NCBI RefSeq assembly: GCF_044704955.1
Contig: NC_091984.1
Location: forward strand, 145,824,001-145,888,000
Reading direction: 5' to 3'
DNA: 64,000 nucleotides
From: Pristiophorus japonicus
Lineage: Eukaryota
In this document: piece by piece, positions 3,051 to 55,361 of the stretch
How positions within the stretch are numbered: position 1 is the first letter of the stretch
Layout: every line of letters starts with the position of its first letter
The notes under the pieces: generated by a model
The model's input: only the letters and a program-made list of their open reading frames with translations
Told to the model about the DNA's origin: nothing
Databases searched by the model: none
Position numbers and translations under genes: made by a program

Positions 3051-4620
3051 CATAAATCCATGCTGACTCTGCCTGACTGAATTTTGCTTTTCCAAATGTC
3101 CTGCTACTACTTCTTTAATAATGGACTCCAACATTTTCCCAAGCACAGTTATGTTAGGCTAACTGGTCTATAGTTTCCTGCTTTTTGTCTGCCTCCTTTT
3201 TTAAATAGGGGCGTTACATTTGTAGTTTTCCAAACTGCTGGGACCTCCCAAGAATCCAGGGAATTCTCAGTGTCCTATCATGTAATGTGTATTCCTTTGC
3301 CTTGTTAGACTTCCCCAAATGCATTACTTCACAGTTCTCGGAATTGAAATCCATTTGCCACTGTTCTGCCCACCTGACTAGTCCATTGATATCTTCCTGC
3401 TGTCTACAGCTTTCTTCCTCACTATCAATCGCACAGCTAATTTTTGTATCATCTGCAAACTTCTTAATCATGTCCCCTACATTGAAGTCTAAATCATTGG
3501 TGTATATTACAATGCACAAGGGACTTAGTACTGAGCCCTGCGGAACCCCACTCGAAACAGCCTTCCAGTGACTAAAATACCCGTTGACCATTTCCCTTTG
3601 CTTCCTGCCACTGAGCCAATTTTGGATCCAACTTGCCACTTTCCCTTGGATCCCATGGGCTTTTTACTTTTCTGCCATGTAAGACCTTGCCAAAAGCCTT
3701 GCAAAAATCTATGTATACTACATCAAAGGTGCAACACTCATCGACCCTCCTTGTTATCTCCACAAAGAATTCAATCAAGTTAGTCACGCATAACATTCCC
3801 TTAACAAATCCATGCTGACTGTCCTTGATTAATCCATCCCTTTCTATATGACAATTTATCCTCTCCCTCGGAATTGTTTCCAATAATTTTCCCACCACCG
3901 AGGTTACGCTGACTGGTCTGTTATTACTCGGTCTATCTCTTTCCCCTTTTTAAACAAAGGCACCATGTTAGCAGCCCTCCAGTCCTCTGACACCTCACCT
4001 GTAAACAGGGTAGATTGAAAAATGATGGTCAGAGCCTCTGCTATTTCCTCCCTTGCTTCTATTCACAACCTGGGATACATTACATGCTAAACCCCTTAAT
4101 ACTTCTTCACTCACTATGTTTATCTCATCGAATATTTCACACTTGTCCTCCTTAATTACAATGTCTGCATCGTCCCTCTCTTCTGTGAAGGTAGATACAA
4201 AGTATTCATTTAGAACTATTCCCACATCTTCCGCTTCCAGACACAGGTTACCTTTTTGGTCTCCAATAGGCCACACTCTTTTTTTAGTTATCCTCTTGGT
4301 CTTTATGTATTTATAAAACATCTTTGAGCTTTCCCTGATTATACTTGACAATATTTTTTCATACCCTCTCTTTGCATTCCTAATTTCCTTTTTAATTTCA
4401 CCCCTGCACTTTCTATACTTCTCTGGGCTTTCTGCAGTATTTAGCTCTGGGTATCTGACATAAGGTTCCCTTTTTTGCCTTAACCTACCCTGTATGCCCT
4501 TTGACATTCAGGGGCTTTAGATTTGGCAGTCCCACCCTTTTCCTTTGTGGGAACATACTTGCTCTGAACCCTCACTATCTCCCCCTTGAATGCCTCCCAC
4601 TGCTCTGACACTGATTTACC
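3051..4620 (-). mobile_element. CR1 LINE ORF2 fragments (degenerate)
   Basis: ORFs with [34 protein letters not shown]. Confidence 0.9.
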
Positions 4621-4626
4621 TTCAAC

Positions 4627-5350
4627 AGAAGAACATAAGAACTAGGAAAAGGAGTAGGCCATATGGCCCCTCGAGCCTGCTCCTCCATTCAATAAAATTA
4701 TGGCTGATCTGATCATGGACTCAGCTCCACCTCCCCGTCCGTTCCTGATAACCCCTTATCCCCTTATCATTTAAGAAACTGTCTAATTCTGTCTTAAATT
4801 TATTCAATGTCCCAGCTTCCACAGCTCTCTGAGGCAATGAATTGCACAGATTTACAACCTTCTCAGAGAAGTAATTTCTCCTCATCTCTGTTGTAAATGG
4901 GCGGCCCCTTATTCTATGATCATGTCTTCTAGTTCTAGTGGAAACATCCTTTCTGCATCCACCTTGTCAAGCCTATTCATAATCTTATATGTTTCCATAA
5001 GATCACCTCTCATTCTTTTGCTTTCCAATGGGTAGAGGCCCAACATACTCAACCTTTCCTCATAAGTCAACCCCCTCATTTCCAGAATCAACCGAGTGAA
5101 TCTCCTCTGAATTGCCTCCAAAGCAAGTATATCCTTTCGTAAATATGGAAACCAAAACTGCACGCAATATTCCAGGTGTGGCCTCACCAATACCCTGTAT
5201 AGCTGCAGCAAGACTTCCTTGCTTTTATACTCCATTCCCTTTGCAATAAAGGCCAAGATTCCATTGGCCTTCCTGGTCACTTGCTGTACTTGCATACTAC
5301 CCTATTGTGTTTCATGCACAAGTACCCCCAGGTCCCGCTGTACTGCAACC
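4627..5350 (-). mobile_element. CR1 LINE 3' end
   Basis: LYRVLVRPHLEYCVQFW...MRGDLMETYKI plus typical shark CR1 3' UTR (gaacataagaa...ggagtaggcc). Confidence 0.9.
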
Positions 5351-5449
5351 TACCCAATCTTGCCTCATAACTAGATTTGGGAGTGCCACCCTTTTCCTTT
5401 GTGGGAACACATTGCTCTGAACCCTCACTATCTCCCCCTTGAATGCCTC

Positions 5450-6208
5450 TCTCAGGTGGGCGTTAATGATCCCATGCCATTATTTTGAAGAAGAGCAGGG
5501 GAGTTCTCCCCGGTGTCCCGGCCAATATTTATTCCTCAATCAACATGACAAAAACAGATTGGGGACGAAATTTCCCCGCTGTGTGAAAGGGATGTGACAG
5601 TGTTTTCCCTGGGGGGGGGTGGGCCTACCCGATCCCGCGGGATTTAGCAGAGACGTGAAATGGATAGTGCCCCGTGAGCCGTGTCCGCGCCCCGTGAGCC
5701 GTGTCCACGTCCCGTGAGCCGTGTCCGCGCCAGGCCTGTGGGTCACGAACCGGGCCGCACTTCGCTCGCGGGGCGAAACTTACTGGGAGATGCGCACCGC
5801 CGCGCCCCGCCATTTGTTTTTGCCGAATTACCCGTCGGGCCTTTCTGTGCCGATGTGGTGGGGTCGGTGCCTTCATGGTGCAGCCTGACACTCGCCCCCG
5901 AGCCCACCCCCAGGGGAAGTGCAGCACACCACATTGCGCTCCACTTCCTGTCAGGGGCCGTGACCCCAATTTTGCTTCCGGGGCAGGAATTTGGCGTGGG
6001 AAAATTAGCCGCCCCAAACCGGGGCGATACGCAATTTGGGCCCATTATCTGGTCATAGTCATACGTGGGAGCTTGCTGTGTACAAACTGTCTGTCGTGTC
6101 TTCTCCATTACCGCAGTGACTACACTTTAAAAGTACTTCATTGGCTGTAAAGCGCTTTGGGACGTCCTGAGGTGGTGAAAGGCGCTATATAAATGCAAGT
6201 CTTTCTTT
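5450..6208 (+). mobile_element. DeuSINE (SacSINE1-like), interrupted by a MITE at 5561-6043
   Basis: Deu-domain-like ttttgaagaagagcaggggagttctccccggtgtcc and tail gtgaaaggcgctatataaatgcaagt; homologous to the uninterrupted copy at 60065-60410. Confidence 0.75.
5561..6043. mobile_element. MITE, probably PIF/Harbinger-type
   Basis: Interrupts the SINE at cagatt|attatctgg (3-bp ATT duplication); imperfect TIRs GGGGACGAAATT / AATTTGGGCCC. Confidence 0.6.
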
Positions 6209-7629
6209 CCAATTCAGCTCGACATCTTTGAAACCCAAACCCGCAGACAGTGACGGACAGGTAAAGACCCTGTGGTCCATGCAGCCCGTCCCACACAATT
6301 GTGATATCTTGTGTATCACAGTATAGACTCTCCACCCCACCCAAAACTACCTGATCTCCTGGGAGAGGCGAAAAACCAGGGAAAAAACCCATTGGGGGAA
6401 ATAAATCTGGGAAACTCCTCTCCGACGCCCCACCCATCCCCCACACCAGGCGATGGAAACTAGTCCAGGAGGTGACTGTGGCCCTGAATTCCCTGCAGTA
6501 ACTACCTTCTGTAAGTGGTGATCTCCGCACCGGCCACAAACAGGTCCTGCTCTCGCTTATGTACAGCTCATGGATTTAAAATTACAAGCTTTCCCCACAG
6601 TGTCAAGTGCTGCAAATACTGTGTTACATTATCAGGGTTATATTCTCACTGTCTGTCATTGTCACAACACTCGCTATATAAATGCAAGTTGTTGTTATGT
6701 TTAGGGGCCGCTGTATCTGGCTCAGGCTTCTTATCCATCCCTCCTTCCCTTCCCCCTCCATTGGGGGCCGTGCCTTCAGCTGCCTGGGTCCTAAATCTCT
6801 GCTCCCTAAACCTCTCTGCCACTCCACCCCTCTCCTCTTTGAAGACCTCCCTTCAAACCCAATCTGTGATTGAGGGTTTTGATCACCCTCCCAGCCCCTC
6901 CCCCTTTGGCTCAGCACCGCTTTGACCAGATTACGCCTGTGTCAGCTGCCTTGGGATGTTGTTCTAATGTTCCAGTTACGATAGCAATGCGGGTTGTTGC
7001 TGCTGTACCTGGCGGCAGAATGTCTCTGTGTGGATATACCCCGTGCACCGATCTCCGCGGTGAGGCCTCCCACAGTGGAATGGCCTGCCGATGCTCGCTG
7101 CAGTGCGGGGTGGCTGCTGACCCGCCAATCGGTCTGAGACACCGCCTCACGAGCGGACGAGGAGATACACGCTGAGATCCACCATCAAATGACACGTGGG
7201 GAACTGGAAATGATTCTGCAAACCTGACTGAAGGTTTGGAACAAACGGGTCTTACAAACCAATCAATTGAGTGACACAGAAATTGTCCAAAAATTTGGTC
7301 TTTTCAGAACCAACATCGCCCCCTTTTGGTATGAAGGCAGCACTGACAATTTCCCTCACAATTTGACTGAGCTGCAATTTTCAATGTCTCCTTACGTGGC
7401 TCGCTGTCAATCTTTATTCTATAACGCTCCTGTGAAGCGCTCGGGGAGTTTTATTGTGTTAAAGGTGCTGTATAAAAGTTGCTGTTGTTGTTTGTTCTGA
7501 GTTAGCTGTTCCAACTGAGATCGGGATATGACTCACAGCTCAGACTGTGCGGCATCCAGTGATGCAATGTTGTATCGTGGGCTCAAGCCCCACTCCAGGG
7601 ACCTGAGTGTAAAATAAAGACATACACTA

Positions 7630-8506
7630 CTGTGCAGTCCTGAGGGAGTGCTGCACTGTCAGAGGGGCAGTACTGAGGGAGTGCCGTACTGTCAGAGGGA
7701 CAGTACTGAGGGAGTGCCACACTTTCAGAGGGGCAACTGAGGGAGTGCCGCACTGTCAGAGGGGCAGTACGGAGGGAGTGCTGCACTGTCAGAGGGGCAG
7801 TACTGAGGGAGTGCCGCACTGTCGGAGGGGCAGTACTGAGGGAGTGCCATACTGTCAGAGGGGCAATACTGAGGGAGTGCCACACTGTCAGAGGGACAGT
7901 ACTGAGGGAGTGCTGCACTGTCAGAGGGGTAGTACTGAGGGAGTGCCACACTGTCAGAGGGGCAACTGAGGGAGTGCCGCACTGTCAGAGGGGCAGTACT
8001 GAGGGAGTGCTGCACTGTCACAGGGGCAGTACTGAGGGAGTGTTGCACTGTCGGAGAAGCAATATTGAGGGAGTGTTGCACTGTCAGAGGGGCAATACTG
8101 AGGGAGTGCTGCACTGTCAGAGGGGCAGTACTGAGGGAGTGCCGCACTGTCAGAGGGGCAATACTGAGGGAGTGCCACACTGTCGGAGGGGCAGTACTGA
8201 GGGAGTGCCGTACTGTCAGAGGGGCAATACTGAGGGAGTGCCACACTGTCAGAGGGACAGTACTGAGGGAGTGCTGCACTGTCACAGGGGCAGTACTGAG
8301 GGAGTGTTGCACTGTCGGAGAAGCAATATTGAGGGAGTGTTGCACTGTCAGAGGGGCAATACTGACGGAGTGCTGCACTGTCAGAGGGGCAGTACTGAGG
8401 GAGTGCCGCACTGTCAGAGGGGCAATATTGAGGGAGTGTTGCACTGTTGGAGGGGCAATACTGAGGGAGTGCCACACTGTCAGAGGGGCAGTACTGAGGG
8501 AGTGCC
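7630..8506 (+). repeat. 33-bp minisatellite (gtactgagggagtgccgcactgtcagaggggca)n derived from a SINE head
   Basis: About 26 tandem units, directly preceded by a B-box-like SINE 5' region at 7577-7640. Confidence 0.9.
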
Positions 8507-9522
8507 TGTCGACGGTTTTCTCGGGCTTACCGAAAACGCACCTCCTACTACAAGTTCTGGACGATAGGGATTATATGGACAGATGAGACTCAGACACACG
8601 TTTTTCGGGCTCAACCGTATTGTGTTTAATAAGATTAACAACACCACTCATAAACAGTGCAAAACAGTACAACCCTGGCTTGTCCAATTAGCCCTGCCGT
8701 GCTAAGTTACCACGGTTTAATAAAAGAACCCTCTCATGAAATAAACTAACACAGGACCCTCCCAGCACTAAACCCCTTGGGTTTGGTTGGGACTTACAAT
8801 CAACCCCTCACACAGCTAAGTGGTCTTGTGGATGTGTAGGCGCAGGCAATATGCTCACCCTGATTGCCCGTTGTCTTGCTTGCAGCTTCTTCCTGAACGT
8901 CTCGCTCCTGGGCTTTTTCCTGGGCTTTTTCCTGAGCTTTTTCCTGGGCTTTTTCCTGGGCTTTTTCCTGACCTTTTTCCGGGGCTTTCTTCCTCCTGAG
9001 CTTGAGCTTGTTGCAAAGTGGCTCCTTATATCCCCAAAACCCACCTCCTTTCCTCCCACCAATACTGACCGATGGATTGACTCCGGTGATCTGTCTGGAC
9101 TCCCCGCCCCGTGGCCTGGAGTGACTCGTAGCCTTTGAAATGTTTGTGAAAAATGATATTTTGTTTTCCCGCTCCCAGGCCTTGCATCTGGAGAGACAAT
9201 GGGTGCTGATTACTGGATGTCTGTCGTTTCCTGAGTTGATGGTCCCCATTAGCAGGTAATGGGTTTCGATCACAAACCGATCTTGCTTAACCGGCTTATC
9301 TTCTGGAAGGCAATGGGCCGGCCATTTCCTGCCTTGCACCAGTTTGGGTTGGGACTGAGTGGTGACTGTGCTTTAATAATGTGAAGGCACAGTGTCTCTG
9401 AGTTACCTCTCGGAGTATTGTTCCCAGTAATCACTTTAGATGGTGATGACATCAATGGGCCTGGGTTCCCTGCCACCCAGCCTGTCAGTGTGAAATGTCC
9501 GGTTGTATATTAATGCACCTCA
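8507..9522 (-). mobile_element. Probable solo LTR (~1 kb)
   Basis: TG...CA ends flanked by GTGCC (8502-8506 and 9523-9527); minus-strand TATA-like GATATAAG near 9030 and ATTAAA near 8628; internal 12-bp repeat cctgggcttttt. Confidence 0.5.
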
Positions 9523-12560: not shown

Positions 12561-12747
12561 CTGAGCGCTGATTCTAACGCCGGGCGGTCGGTGCCTCCTC
12601 AAACGGCAAAATTCACCGTCCACAGATACTGCCTGATCTGCTGAGTATTTCCAGCATTTTCTGTCTTCCCAGAGGCCTTTCTTTGCCATCTGAGGCCTTG
12701 CAAATGTCTAGCATCACTCCCTACACACTGAAAAATCTTTTACATCT

Positions 12748-13088
12748 TTTTTTTAAAATTCGTAGCCAATCTTTCCAATTCTTTGTCAAATCACAAACGC
12801 CAGAGGTCACCTTGCACACATCAAGGATCACTCTGCGCCAATGCTCTTAGCCAAAAGGCCGAGAGCCACTGCACTGTTCCTGGAAGTACTACACTACCAG
12901 GTTCGTGCCATGGAGGTGGATGGGTCAGGCCCCCCACACACCTCCGTGGAGGTGGATGGGTCAAACCACCCCACCCACCTCCTATTTCCAAAAAGTTTGC
13001 AGAACCACCTTCCTGATCCAGGGAGAACCACTTTGGGGTCATGGTTACTCCCCTGTCAGGTCAGTTACGCATGATCTTAGCCAAAAGG
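12748..13088 (-). mobile_element. U2/U1 snRNA-chimeric SINE, near full-length (copy S1)
   Basis: Minus strand: ccttttggctaagatca (U2 5'), actgacctgacaggggagtaaccatgaccccaaagtggttctccc (U1 5'), Sm-like ctttttgg, U2 3' acctggtagtgtagtacttccaggaacagtgca, second ctcggccttttggctaaga, tail, poly(A). Confidence 0.88.
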
Positions 13089-13097
13089 AAACCTTTT

Positions 13098-13333
13098 TTT
13101 TTTATTTATTTTTTTTATTTAATTCGTAGCCAATCGTTCCAATTCTTTGTCAAATCACAAACGCCAGAGGTCACCTTGCACACGCCAAGGATCACTCTGC
13201 GCCAATGCTCTTAGCCAAAAGGCCTAGAGCCACTGCACCGTTCCTGGAAGTACTGCAATACCAGGTTCGTGCCATGGAGGTGGATGGGTCAGGTCCCCCA
13301 CACACCTCCGTGGAGGTGGATGGGTCAAGCCAC
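13098..13333 (-). mobile_element. U2/U1-chimeric SINE, 5'-truncated (copy S2)
   Basis: Same 3' part and A-rich tail; 17-bp TSD ccaaaaggaaacctttt at 13081-13097 and 13334-13350. Confidence 0.88.
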
Positions 13334-13356
13334 CCAAAAGGAAACCTTTTACATCT

Positions 13357-14724
13357 TTTTTTTTTTTTTTTTTTTTTTATTTCAAAATATACTTTATTCA
13401 TAAAAAAGAATCTGTACAGTACATTCGATGGCATTTCATTACATTTCGCTGCGGTCAGCAATCCCATACAATACATCTGGGTGCCGACGGCAGTTTCGTT
13501 CGTTACATTTCTCGTTTTTCTGTTCAACTGCGATTCAGTACAATAAACAGGGTACATTGTGGTACATTTACACAAATTTCATTTCATGTGTTACATTACA
13601 GAGCCCGGAATGGGTGATGGTACATTTACATTTTTTTTCCTTTTCAAACTTGCATTTCATAACACACCTTACATTGTACATGGCACTACATTGATGTTTA
13701 CAGGTTTGGTGCTCTATGTACACAAAGTGTAAATTTCAAATACAAATACAGCCCGAGGGAGTTTGGTGCTGATTTCTGCCCCCGGGTTTTCCGTGGCGGA
13801 AGGGTTTTAGACTGTGGCCCTACCCCACCGTGCCTTTGCGGCGACTGCACCAATTTTCAGTGCGTCCCTCAGCACGTATTCCTGGATCTTGGATTGCGCC
13901 AGTCTGCAACATGCGGACGTGGTCATCTCCTTGTTCTGGAAGACCAGCAAGTTTCGGCAAGACCAAAGGGCGTCTTTGACCGAGTTGATGGCCCTCCAGC
14001 AGCAGGTGATGTCTGTCTCGGTGTGTGTCCCTGGGAACAGCCCGTAGAGCACAGAGTCCTGTGTTACGGAGCTGCTTGGGATGAACCTCGACAACAACCA
14101 CTGCATCTCTTTCCAGACCTGCGTCGCAAAGGCGCAATCCTGAAGGAGGTGGGTGACAGTCTCGTCCGCCCCGCAGCCGGCCCGGGGGCACCGTGCCGTG
14201 CTGCTGAGGCGTCGGCTGTGCATGAACACTCTGACGGGTAGGGCCCCCCTCACCGCCAACCAAGCTGCGTCTTGGTGCTTGTGTGTAAGCTTTGGCGATG
14301 AGACGTTCTGCCAAACAAGTTCGACAGTCCGCTCAGGGAACCACCCGACAGGGTCCACCGTCTCCTTCTTTCGTAGGGTGTCCAGGACCTTACGTGCTGA
14401 CCACTGTTTGATGGCCTTGTGGTCAAAGGGGTTTCTTTTGAAGAACTTTTCCACAAAGGACAGGTGGACAGGCATGGTCCAACTGGTGGGGGCGTTTCGC
14501 GGCAGCGTGGCCAGACCCATCCTTCTCAACAAAGGGGACAGGTAGAACCTCAGCACGTAGTGACACTTGGTGTTTGCGTACTGGGGGGCTGTGCATAGCT
14601 TGATGCAGCCGCACACAAAGGTGGCCATCAGGATGAGGGCCACGTTCGGAACGTCCTTTCCTCCACTGTCCAGAGATTTGTACATCGTGTCTCTGCGGAC
14701 ACGGTCCATTTTGGATCTCCAGAC
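13357..14724 (-). mobile_element. Tx1-clade (L1-group) non-LTR retrotransposon, 5'-truncated, with an intact 300-aa ORF2 C-terminus
   Basis: ORF 13807-14709 with zf-RVT motif WLAVRGALP..CPRAGCGADETVTHLLQDC; 3' UTR with AATAAA and long poly(A); TSD aaccttttacatct at 13343-13356 and 14725-14738. Confidence 0.88.
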
Positions 14725-15139
14725 AACCTTTTACATCTATTGCAGCAAGCAACTACTTCAATAAAATACCCAATCGAAAAGCTTAACTCCAAACTTGCCT
14801 GAATGATGTGTGCATCCCTTTAAGTGGTACGGTCAATGCTTCTGTGAGTCTGCTTACACGCTGGGTTTATCCGGTGTGGTTTAGGATCCAGCACTGAACT
14901 CCGTGCTCGGGTCAAAGTTCACCATGGTGAAGGTCAGTGTTGCACACCGACTGACGTCACAACTCCGCCATTTTACTTTGAAGGGCGATATTCCATAACA
15001 GCAGCACTGCAGGGCCTGGGAAAATGGAGAACACCGTGGAACCCACCACCCGCTGGCAAAAGTGCAGAGGCCACCCTCTTTGACCCACTTTTTGCCGGCA
15101 ATGTGTGGTGTAAAGCGCTTGAATTTTTGCGCAAAGCAA

Positions 15140-15600
15140 TAATGGAAGATCACGACCAATGCATCCAGTATCTCTTTAGCCACCTCTTTTAAAACCTTAG
15201 CATCTAGGTTATCAGCTATATGGGATTTATCAAATTTTACTCTCAATAATTTCTCCAGTACTGCTCCTTTACTAATACTAATTGCTTTAATTTCCTCATT
15301 CTCATTAGACCCTTGTTTCCCCACTATTTCCAGGATGCTTTTTGTATCTTTTTCTGTGAAGGCAGATACAATGTATTTGTTTAATATCCTTACCATGTTC
15401 ATATACCCCATTATAATTTCTCCTGTCTCTGCCTGTAAGGGACCCACGTTTACTTTCGCTGAGCTCTTCGTTTTTCTTGAACTATAGAAGCTTTTATAAT
15501 CCACGTGTATGTCCCTTGCTAGTTTACTGTCACATTGTATTGTGCCGGGGTCAATTCCCTGATCGTCCTTTGCTGAATTCTGAAATCCTCCCAAATCTCA
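15140..15600 (-). mobile_element. CR1 LINE fragment
   Basis: NVGPLQAETGEIIMG...VLKEVAKEILDALVVIF. Confidence 0.8.
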
Positions 15601-15700
15601 GGCTGACATTTTTGTCATCCAGAAATTCTCCTTCACCTGCGAAGTTCTGTTCTAACCATGGTTGTGTGCTTTCACTCTCTACATATGTCCGGTCAAAAGC

Positions 15701-16858
15701 CTGTTCCCAGCTCTCACACTCTATCTATGACCATCCACACTCTGTTCCCAGCTCTCACACTCTATCTATGACCATCCACACTCTGTTCCCAGCTCTCACA
15801 CTCTATCTATGGCCATCCACAGTCTGTTCCCAGCTCTCACTGTCTATCAATGACCATCCACACTCTGTTCCCAGCTCTCACTGTCTATCTATGACCATCC
15901 ACACTCTGTTCCCAGCTCTCACTGTCTATCTATGACCATCCACAGTCTGTTCCCAGCTCTCACACTCTATCTATGACCATCCACAGTCTGTTCCCAGCTC
16001 TCACACTCTATCTATGACCATCCACAGTCTGTTCCCAGCTCTCACACTCTATCTATGACCATCCACACTCTGTTCCCAGCTCTCACACTCTATCTATGAC
16101 CATCCACAGTCTGTTCCCAGCTCTCACTGTCTATCTATGACCATCCACAGTCTGTTCCCAGCTCTCACACTCTATCTATGGCCATCCACAGTCTGTTCCC
16201 AGCTCTCACTGTCTATCTATGACCATCCACACTCTGTTCCCAGCTCTCACACTCTATCTATGACCATCCACAGTCTGTTCCCAGCTCTCACACTCTATCT
16301 ATGACCATCCACAGTCTGTTCCCAGCTCTCACACTCTATCTATGACCATCCACACTCTGTTCCCAGCTCTCACACTCTATCTATGACCATCCACAGTCTG
16401 TTCCCAGCTCTCACACTATCTATGACCATCCACACTCTGTTCCCAGCTCTCACTGTCTATCTATGACCATCCACAGTCTGTTCCCAGCTCTCACACTCTA
16501 TCTATGGCCATCCACACTCTGTTCCCAGCTCTCACACTCTATCTATGACCATCCACACTCTGTTCCCAGCTCTCACTGTCTATCTATGACCATCCACACT
16601 CTGTTCCCAGCTCTCACACTCTATCTATGACCATCCACAGTCTGTTCCCAGCTCTCACACTCTATCTATGGCCATCCACACTCTGTTCCCAGCTCTCACA
16701 CTCTATCTATGACCATCCACACTCTGTTCCCAGCTCTCACACTCTATCTATGACCATCCACACTCTGTTCCCAGCTCTCACTGTCTATCTATGACCATCC
16801 ACACTCTGTTCCCAGCTCTCACACTCTATCTATGACCATCCATAATCTGTTCCCACCT
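15701..16858 (+). repeat. 41-bp minisatellite (ctgttcccagctctcacactctatctatgaccatccacact)n
   Basis: About 28 near-identical tandem units, period 41. Confidence 0.95.
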
Positions 16859-16899
16859 CACACTCCAGCAGTGCATGAGGCAAAACGTTTTAAAGGATT

Positions 16900-17270
16900 G
16901 CCCCTGGCCAACCTGAACTCACATCTTTCTCCAATTTCGCTCCGATCTCCCCTCATGCTCTCTCCGCCAACTTCCTGACCGTGTGACCACTTCCTGCTCC
17001 CTCGACCCTATTCCCACTAAACAGCTGACCACCCAACTTCCTTTTCTGGCTCACTTGTCAGCTGATGTGGTTAATGGTTCTCACCTCAGGTACTTTCCTC
17101 TCCTTGAAATCTGTGGCTTTCACCACTCTCCTCAAAAAACCGACCCTTGATCCCTCCCTTCCCGCCCCATCCTTGCAAACTACCGTCCCATCTCCAACCT
17201 CCCTTTCCTGTCCAAAGTCTTTGAACGTGATGTCATCTCCCAAATCCGTGCCCACCTTTCCCAGAACTCC
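16900..17270 (+). mobile_element. L2 LINE RT fragment
   Basis: LLKKPTLDPS and nucleotide pattern aactaccgtcccatctccaacctccctttcctgtccaaa (NYRPISNLPFLSK). Confidence 0.75.
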
Positions 17271-43682: not shown

Positions 43683-44290
43683 TTGAAACAACTCCGCCAA
43701 CAGTTGCAGCCAATTACAGAAAAGGAGGTTCCAAGCCAAAAGAGACGTAGCGTACCTGAAGAAATGGTAGGTGGTGGGTGGGGGGGCCTGATCCATCCAC
43801 CTCCATGGCACGAACCTGGTATTGCAGTGCTTCCAGGAACGGTGCAGTGGCTCTAGGCCTTTTGGCTAAGAGCATTGGCGCAGAGTGATCCTTGATGTGT
43901 GCAAGGTGACCTCTGGCGTTTGTGATTTGACAAAGAATTGGAACGATTGGCTACAAATTAAAAAAAAAATACCTGAAGAAATGGTACAGAAAAGGCGTCG
44001 GTTAAACACTCATTTTGTTGAGGAGGAACTTCCTGCAATTACTGAACCAATTGAGGATGTGAATGGCTTGACTGCACTGCTGAGCGAGTTGGGGAAGAAA
44101 AATGTGAATCCCGTTTCTGCTCTATCTATTTTGCAAGCGCAGAGGATGCCATCTGCATTTCCAAAAGGTGGAGAATTCAGAGGCTTCTGGCATGACATGT
44201 TACTTTCTTCGTGCAGTTGTGGATGGGGTTGAGTTTAAAGAAGGAATAGGTGTCAGCAAAAATAAATGGCCAAGAACAATTGTGCTGAAG
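43683..44290 (+). pseudogene. Captured ADAD1/ADAD2-like (dsRNA-binding domain) mRNA fragment, antisense to the LTR element and split by a SINE
   Basis: KNVNPVSAL..QAQRM /frameshift/ YFLRAVVDGVEFKEGIGVSK resembles the ADAD1 dsRBD as recalled ([36 protein letters not shown]); the frame runs through once the SINE is removed. Confidence 0.65.
43770..43969 (+). mobile_element. U2/U1-chimeric SINE, 5'-truncated (copy S3)
   Basis: U2 3' motif acctggtattgcagtgcttccaggaacggtgca, family tail, poly(A); 17-bp TSD tacctgaagaaatggta at 43753-43769 and 43970-43986. Confidence 0.9.
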
Positions 44291-54307: not shown

Positions 54308-55361
54308 ATTTACTTCTCGGCCTTTTGGCTAAGATCTGCATAACTAACCTGACCAGCCACCATGACGTCCGGGTGGTTCCTCCCTGGTCAGGAAGGTATA
54401 TGCTTACATTTTTGTAAACAGGAGGTGGGTGGGATTGGTGACCCATCCACCTCCACGGAGGTGTGTGGGGGACCTGACCCATCCACCTCCATGGCACGAA
54501 CCTGGTATTGCAGTACTTCCAGGAACGGTGCAGTGGCTCTAGGCCTTTTGGCTAAGAGCATTGGCGCAGAGTGATCCTTGACTGGTGCAGGGTGACCTCT
54601 GGCGTTTGACAAAGAATTGTAACGATTGGATAACGATTGGACATGAATTTAAAAAAAAAAAAAAAAATTTACTTCTCGGCCTTTTGGCTAAGATCTGCAT
54701 AACTAACCTGACCAGCCACCATGACTTCCGGGTGGTTTCTCCCTGGTCAGGAAGGTATATGCTTACATTTTTGTAAACAGGAGGTGGGTGGGATTGGTGA
54801 CCCATCCACCTCCACGGAGGTGTGTGGGGGACCTGACCCATCCACCTCCATGGCACGAACCTGGTATTGCAGTACTTCCAGGAACGGTGCAGTGGCTCTA
54901 GGCCTTTTGGCTAAGAGCATTAGCGCAGAGTGATCCTTGACTGGTGCAGGGTGACCTCTGGCGTTTGACAAAGAATTGTAACGATTGGATAACGATTGGA
55001 CATGAATTTAAAAAAAAAAAAAAAAAAATACTTCTCGGCCTTTTGGCTAAGATCTGCATAACTAACCTGACCAGCCACCATGACCTCCGGGTGGTTTCTC
55101 CCTGGTCAGGAAGGTATATGCTTACATTTTTGTAAACAGGAGGTGGGTGGGATGGCTTGACCCATCCACCTCCACAGAGGTGTGTGGGGGACCTGACCCA
55201 TCCACCTCCATGGCACGAACCTGGTATTGCAGTACTTCCAGGAATGGTGCAGTGGCTCTAGGCCTTTTGGCTAAGAGTATTGGCGCAGAGTGATCCTTGA
55301 CTGGTGCAGGGTGACCTCTGGCGTTTGACAAAGAATTGGACACGAATTAAAAAAAAAAAAA
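54308..55361 (+). mobile_element. Head-to-tail trimer of full-length U2/U1-chimeric SINE (units start about 54308, 54668 and 55029; period 359)
   Basis: Each unit starts with cttctcggccttttggctaagatc (identical to U2 nt 5-28), contains the U2 3' stem-loop IV and ends in an A-run. Confidence 0.92.

Follow-up and report, generated by a model that had tools for sequence, protein, structure and literature searches.

The window analysed here is a stretch of 64,000 nucleotides placed on C8 of the 5.9 Gb genome of the shark Pristiophorus japonicus. Three retroelement copies, namely two SINEs (S1 and S2) and a fragment of a Tx1-clade LINE, are stacked in it between copies of one short target sequence, T. 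Along the minus strand, on which all features of this locus lie, the order is flank, T, Keno LINE fragment, poly(A), T, S2, poly(A), a second target-site duplication (TSD), S1, poly(A) and T. This agrees with the preliminary description, in which a 14-mer was seen to bracket a SINE block and then the Tx1 element on the minus strand. The 14-mer occurs exactly three times in the window (12734-12747, 13343-13356 and 14725-14738), as reported there; the count stays at three when one mismatch is tolerated, and shuffled windows contain 0.06 copies on average, with none of 100 shuffles reaching three. The locus belongs to a segmental duplication that is present in multiple copies on C8, and two minisatellites, a 41-bp and a 33-bp array, lie close by at 15590-16994 and 7604-8591.

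The 3'-side copy of T (12733-12747) is 15 bp long as the TSD of S1, holds the 14-mer and carries a C>T change private to this copy, C being present in both TSD copies of all four S1-only paralogues described below. S1, with a short poly(A), occupies 12748-13089, is 5'-truncated by ~12 nt and was the first to insert at the site. S2, a 5'-truncated member of the youngest SINE subfamily with its poly(A), lies at 13098-13333 between two copies of a 17-bp TSD (13081-13097 on the 3' side and 13334-13350 on the 5' side), in which four T's could equally belong to the tail and 1 nt is possibly microhomology. The 3'-side copy overlaps the head of S1 and takes in its first 9 nt, and the S2 nick lies 6 nt from the nick used by S1 and Keno; both points had been noticed earlier and are upheld. 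The middle copy of T (13342-13356) represents the regenerated target, apparently re-used by the 5'-truncated Keno copy which, with its poly(A), spans 13357-14724. The 5'-side copy of T (14725-14738) serves as a 14-bp Keno TSD, its last 2 nt being microhomology with Keno. Two further sites in the window, both on the plus strand, hold a separate 5'-truncated copy of the S1/S2 SINE family with its own unrelated 17-bp TSD (43753-43986) and three head-to-tail SINEs of the subfamily found in U2 arrays (54309-55361). The members of this triplet are joined poly(A)-to-head without a clear TSD, possibly by template jumping.

The SINE is a mosaic of ~345 nt. It opens with a U2 5' head, which is followed by a piece from the U1 5' end, the 3' half of U2, another U2 5' stem-loop, an unrelated tail and poly(A). 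In S1 these parts are represented by a remnant of the U2 5' head (13074-13089), the U1-derived segment (13012-13065), the U2 3'-half-derived segment (12869-12948) and the second, internal U2 5' stem-loop motif (12845-12864). The U1 piece corresponds to nt 3-57 of the U1 of the same genome, with 44 of 55 columns identical, a score reached by none of 1000 shuffles. A 30-nt pattern from the SINE tail has 4,028 exact matches genome-wide. S2 matches 29 other loci at a rounded identity of 100%, with no mismatch to its nearest copies, while the nearest copies of S1 are 97-98% identical. The element is short, non-coding, poly(A)-tailed and multi-copy, with a common structure, a median TSD of 16 bp, a head derived from U1/U2 snRNA and a target preference common to it and a Tx1 family (Keno), which is the description of a SINEU-type element. 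Rfam scans returned similarity to U1 and U2 only, with no tRNA, 7SL or 5S head, and it is therefore not a classical Pol III SINE. Internal T runs are present. Short words in the tail, which we took to resemble U4/U6, were dropped as a lead, Rfam at E<=10 giving no match to either RNA.

The 5' ends of 283 distinct SINE copies from the fetched loci are bimodal, with 184 falling within nt 1-20 and 64 within nt 111-130. The second cluster lies just 3' of a T run resembling an Sm site and coincides with the 5' arm of a hairpin of 13 bp; an Sm ring or the hairpin could stall reverse transcription there, or a shorter source transcript could be used. A sister SINE comprises a U2 that is almost complete, apart from an 8-nt deletion, together with a related tail. 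It retains the Keno site and is a dispersed Keno target in its own right. It also has the second U2 5' motif (L151/L315, L192 and L250), L192 being the undeleted form, and it appears ancestral to the mosaic SINE. Six segmental copies of one sister-SINE site (L091-L096, C8 143-148 Mb) carry differing SINE variants, 83% against 92-93% identical to the young reference, which suggests independent or replacing insertions.

The Tx1 fragment in the window is, judged by its sequence, the 3' end of a young, U2-targeting Keno element. It covers nt ~4377-5722 of a full-length element of 5,722 nt and is 99.3% identical to intact copies, including one in a U2 array. The preliminary description gave the ORF2 end as 300 aa and still open; the C-terminus (13807-14724), with a zf-RVT domain, is indeed open over 305 aa, of which 304 are identical to an intact full-length copy. 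Intact copies encode an ORF1 of 569 aa with zf-CCHC and an ORF2 of 1,145 aa with an APE endonuclease (Exo_endo_phos), a reverse transcriptase (RVT_1) and zf-RVT. The 3' end of Keno has 150 exact copies in the genome. Its relatives carry TX1-type names, and pairwise identity of the reverse transcriptase to named Takifugu and Danio entries, which we take to be Keno, is 39% and 37%. Keno is said to have been introduced by Kojima and Fujiwara in 2004 as a U2-specific family of the Tx1 clade. The 3' junction of the shark element lies at U2 nt 37/38 and its 3' flank equals the published Keno target, whose 3' junction is placed 37 nt into U2 (PMC6136364; PMC4640811).

Keno has a slightly diverged U2 head of its own. 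This head is homologous to that of the SINE, as each element opens with the first 28-29 nt of U2, a shared feature overlooked in the preliminary description. Keno insertions are also seen at position 37/38 of Keno's own U2 head and of the SINE head. Just behind the U2 head, the Keno 5' UTR contains a motif at nt ~58-65 (L070) that we presume to be an octamer. Three Keno copies (L264, L268 and L288) have an inverted 5' part, as twin priming predicts. Thus the shark element shares with published Keno the APE endonuclease and reverse transcriptase, the poly(A), the U2 37/38 junction and the flank. However, it differs in its relaxed specificity, most examined copies lying outside U2, in its diverged U2 head, which is itself a target, and in the SINE family that depends on it.

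The order of events can be read from near-identical paralogues of the locus. Two of these are empty, with a single T, four have only S1, flanked by two perfect 15-bp TSDs, and all three elements are present in the window. The stack thus formed stepwise and not by transduction of one block. The claim that S2 postdates S1 is borne out by the S1-only paralogues and by the overlap of the S2 TSD with the S1 head. Because S2 and Keno differ by 0-0.7% from their relatives while the paralogue flanks differ by 2-3%, both are later arrivals. Re-cutting of regenerated targets, also proposed earlier, is in line with the empty and S1-only paralogues and with the nested TSDs seen in many stacks. The four S1-only paralogues form one recent clade, and the first step may have happened more than once: since the flank sites leave the paralogue tree split (4 vs 4) and the window S1 has no private change in common with the paralogue S1, S1 may have inserted twice, independently, at an identical junction. 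At the right-hand junction, public contigs show loose ends in X8 and X5 that look like an empty site; the target is a multi-copy repeat, so this is not proof of an orthologous empty allele.

A single event is very improbable as the origin of the stack, whether Keno carried the block along by 3' transduction or one integration primed repeatedly at a junction left unsealed. Tandems joined poly(A)-to-head without a TSD do exist (the window triplet and L240), some composites travel as a unit (L086), and single-event formation may account for some of the TSD-less tandems. At the window locus, a single transduced block is refuted by the four paralogues with S1 alone and the two empty ones, and no Tx1+SINE block that moved as one unit, the finding that had been named as contrary to the earlier proposal, emerged among them. 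The elements also differ in age, with S1 97-98% identical to its nearest copies against 100% for S2 and 99.3% for Keno, and the ages of stack members in general differ in a fixed direction.

The preliminary description proposed, from the shared TSD, that the Tx1 family mobilises the SINE. This proposal gains support from the U2 37/38 site common to both, from other identical target nucleotides, and from their motifs, TSDs and youth. The sequence-based case for Keno as the SINE partner is much stronger than the shared TSD alone had made it, and Keno is very probably the mobilising partner. In the C19 array, 17 units have the same U2 upstream flank, and these hold 11 full-length Keno copies, five SINEs and one intact U2; array copies of either element begin at U2 +1 and have their 3' end at U2 nt 37/38. 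Two further arrays have SINEs in 5 of 29 and 4 of 28 units, and the SINE at +1 is found behind two U2 flank types (the C19 type and the C9 type, L098). The U2 site is intact in 283 copies in the genome. Junctions of poly(A) to U2 nt 38 number 86, and the 75 examined belong to the SINE (44), to Keno with at least 94% identity (13), to more divergent Keno-like elements (13), to the sister SINE (3) and to others (2). Twenty of the 44 SINE junctions lie in U2-gene-type sequence and 24 in the sister SINE. These junctions are not independent observations, since arrays homogenise and L091-L096 are segmental copies; L086, an apparent composite that moved as one unit, weakens their independence further.

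Outside U2, both families share exact sites, namely two smaller clusters and a site in a Gypsy-type pol region (10 loci, of which four are led by or hold Keno). Among the first 30 filled copies of this Gypsy hot site, 27 contain SINEs, one contains a Keno-like element and two have a bare poly(A) tract. Bare poly(A) with a TSD at family sites (L383, L398 and L303) represents extreme 5' truncation. Two more recurrent exact SINE sites were observed, one (L037, L038, L334, L347, L357 and L361) in what we take to be a Harbinger-type transposase region and the other (L113, L122, L127, L136, L253, L257, L308 and L333) presumably in the tail of a common repeat. Comparison of target logos, TSD lengths and ages in sampled SINE and Keno copies, as suggested in the preliminary description, reveals similar motifs and TSDs and very young copies in both families, and neither different target preferences nor non-overlapping ages. 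The off-U2 nick motif of both is a loose RY/AW (the slash marks the nick), correlated at r=0.64 between the SINE and young Keno, although this motif is weak (~3 bits) and in part forced by alignment on poly(A). Median TSD lengths are 16 for the SINE and 14 for young Keno, based on TSD calls for 85 of the 153 upstream-most SINE copies and for 12 of the 30 young Keno copies. The loose motif recurs in divergent Keno-like Tx1 copies (r=0.58), and older SINE subfamilies may for this reason have used other Keno relatives.

The 14-mer does not represent a family target. The host repeat has 23 older dispersed copies, all of them empty at the site, the target part of this repeat is unmatched at all fetched SINE and Keno loci, and the 14-mer is incidental because TSD sequences vary between stacks.

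It is improbable that another LINE with poly(A) recognition (another Tx1 or L1) moved the SINE, the shared TSD then reflecting two machines that re-cut one good site. In its favour, the tails of SINE and Keno are unrelated, the loose motif also occurs in the divergent Keno-like copies, and the S2 nick, TTTT/A on the primer strand, resembles what we take to be the L1 consensus. However, the SINE occupies U2 37/38 and the Gypsy site alongside Keno, and its logo is RY/AW and not A-rich. A poly(A) run is present just upstream in only 3 of 209 upstream-most family elements, and none of these elements has another recognisable family there. The absence of 3' homology noted earlier was confirmed by shuffle scores: the SINE tail has no homology to the Keno 3' UTR (197 of 500 shuffles score as high), and against the whole of Keno 13 of 200 shuffles score as high, so that the tail cannot be classed as LINE-derived. 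Because the tails are unrelated, the simplest inference is that Keno ORF2 primes on the SINE poly(A), with the shared U2 head as another candidate recognition signal.

Stacking is family-wide. Among 88 unselected SINE loci, taken from the first 100 tail matches on C1, 18 abut a family member on the same strand, while no locus has a family copy at a distance of 85-1200 nt or on the opposite strand. The 57 best-match loci include six abutting stacks, two with a copy 85-1200 nt off and one with an opposite-strand copy. With duplicates removed, 13 of the 39 young Keno copies lie immediately upstream of a SINE, compared with 2 of the 43 that are more divergent (p=0.001), a contrast that age alone may explain in part. 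The 84 adjacent pairs comprise 50 with the same nick, 12 with a shifted nick and 22 without a nick call. The upstream member is the younger in 41 pairs, the older in 9 and tied in 13 (p=6e-6), and the head of the downstream element often lies within the upstream TSD. Duplicate rows were left out (L243, L244, L121, L151-L154, L165, L169, L381 and L382). The largest stack observed comprises nine SINEs at the Gypsy hot site (G000:C4:75031169-75034283, L077), and another of about seven on C13 (L080:3358-9020) combines Keno, two SINE subfamilies and the sister SINE.

The Gypsy site, as a 29-nt exact match, is filled in 74 copies and empty in 5,371, an occupancy of 1.4%, with the reservation that empty copies may be younger than the SINE bursts. 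Stacks account for nine of 30 filled copies, where a Poisson distribution predicts 0.7%; the observed rate is about 40 times that based on occupancy. Regeneration of the target sequence alone is insufficient for such a rate, since 5,371 copies of the same sequence are empty. Re-hits were counted for 12 of 47 residents with a U2 head and for 3 of 38 without one (p=0.045); in the pooled set the figures are 29 of 109 and 10 of 71 (p=0.063), and headless Keno-like copies were re-hit in 9 of 38. We favour, at about even odds, a contribution of the resident U2-headed element over hidden site quality alone.

A somewhat less probable account of the re-hit step keeps Keno as the partner and assigns the resident no part. 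A quality of the site upstream of the nick would survive insertion, made up of a longer-range sequence or shape preference together with germ-line chromatin or a nearby start site. This fits the entry of re-hits into the 5' TSD, which is the copy that keeps the upstream flank, the strong hot sites in unrelated repeats and the re-hits of headless residents, and double insertion at preferred sites has been published for R1, P and jockey (10.1101/158386). However, the same 29-nt site is empty in 5,371 copies, the 88 unselected loci have no nearby or opposite-strand family copy, and U2-headed residents are re-hit about three times as often. Pairing of the resident head with a full-length incoming head was considered and dropped: full-length upstream elements amount to 13/19, against 47/85 of 3'-most residents by hand count, with no clear excess.

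Taken as a whole, the model of a stepwise, Keno-made stack has a probability of about 0.8. The target would have been hit three times in sequence, by S1 first and later by S2 and the truncated Keno, and the Keno enzyme, its ORF2 priming on the SINE poly(A), likely made all three insertions. New copies enter the 5' TSD copy of an older element, so that stacks grow upstream, and a resident U2-headed element would most likely help to attract or complete new insertions. A SINE that replaces the start of a U2 gene would be transcribed from the external U2 promoter and serve as a source gene. Such transcription is somewhat more likely than not, as suggested by position: SINE copies at +1 of the array units keep the flank of the intact U2 gene, and a dispersed copy in the window has no mismatch to array copies over its last 200 nt, which makes the array copies plausible source genes. 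The C19-type U2 flank (300 nt) has no octamer and no clear PSE; no convincing PSE is common to the U1 and U2 upstream regions, where an octamer is found upstream of two U1 types only. A tentative extension is that SINE and LINE form a living pair parasitising the U2 genes as target and as promoter alike, in which the promoter-less SINE is transcribed only where Keno has placed it at U2 +1 and the 5' TSDs of U2-headed copies become new landing pads, a self-reinforcing loop that could build stacks of up to nine.

SINEU elements with a Tx1 partner are already known from crocodilians, in which SINEU-1/2/3 are described together with Tx1-Mar (PMC4494074). Their U1/U2-derived heads were added in series before a poly(A) tail, they lack tail homology to the LINE, and the partner was inferred from targets common to the Keno-related Tx1 group. 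Crocodilian Tx1 elements have snRNA heads as well, and tandem SINEU-3 insertions sandwich a TSD. SINEU is reported there only in crocodilians, with Mariner-N4 as the target in 13-90% of copies, partner families 85-87% identical to their consensus, and SINEU transcription stated as an open question (PMC4494074). The shark SINE has in common with SINEU the snRNA head, the poly(A), the tail unlike that of the LINE, a Tx1 partner indicated by shared targets and the TSD-sandwiching tandems. However, the shark partner is a genuine U2-targeting Keno, intact and very young; its SINE inserts into U2 genes at +1, and stacks that mix SINE and LINE contain up to 7-9 members. The likeness to SINEU is one of structure and description, and we infer that the shark SINE arose independently.

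Tandems of R1, P element and jockey at one target, with a TSD copy between them and differing 5' truncations, are described by McGurk and Barbash (10.1101/158386). TSD-separated tandems with different 5' truncations are thus found in both flies and shark, whereas the shark stacks mix two kinds of elements, their order is obtained from paralogues and age, and the re-hit rate is ~40x that expected. The literature searched (Repbase, Dfam and subscription papers being outside its scope) yielded no report of a shark SINEU or of a SINE driven by Keno. The present results add the paralogue series that fixes the insertion order, and measurements of how far stacking exceeds expectation and in which direction it proceeds.

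As far as the literature searched goes, these results extend SINEU-type elements beyond crocodilians. Two gaps set out in Kojima 2015, namely the transcription of a promoter-less SINE and a partner known from old elements only, become direct experiments, because the shark partner is intact and recently active and SINEs lie at the U2 start in arrays. The bias towards re-hitting occupied sites bears on how target-specific retrotransposons with relaxed specificity choose their sites, and on the use of such insertions as homoplasy-free markers.
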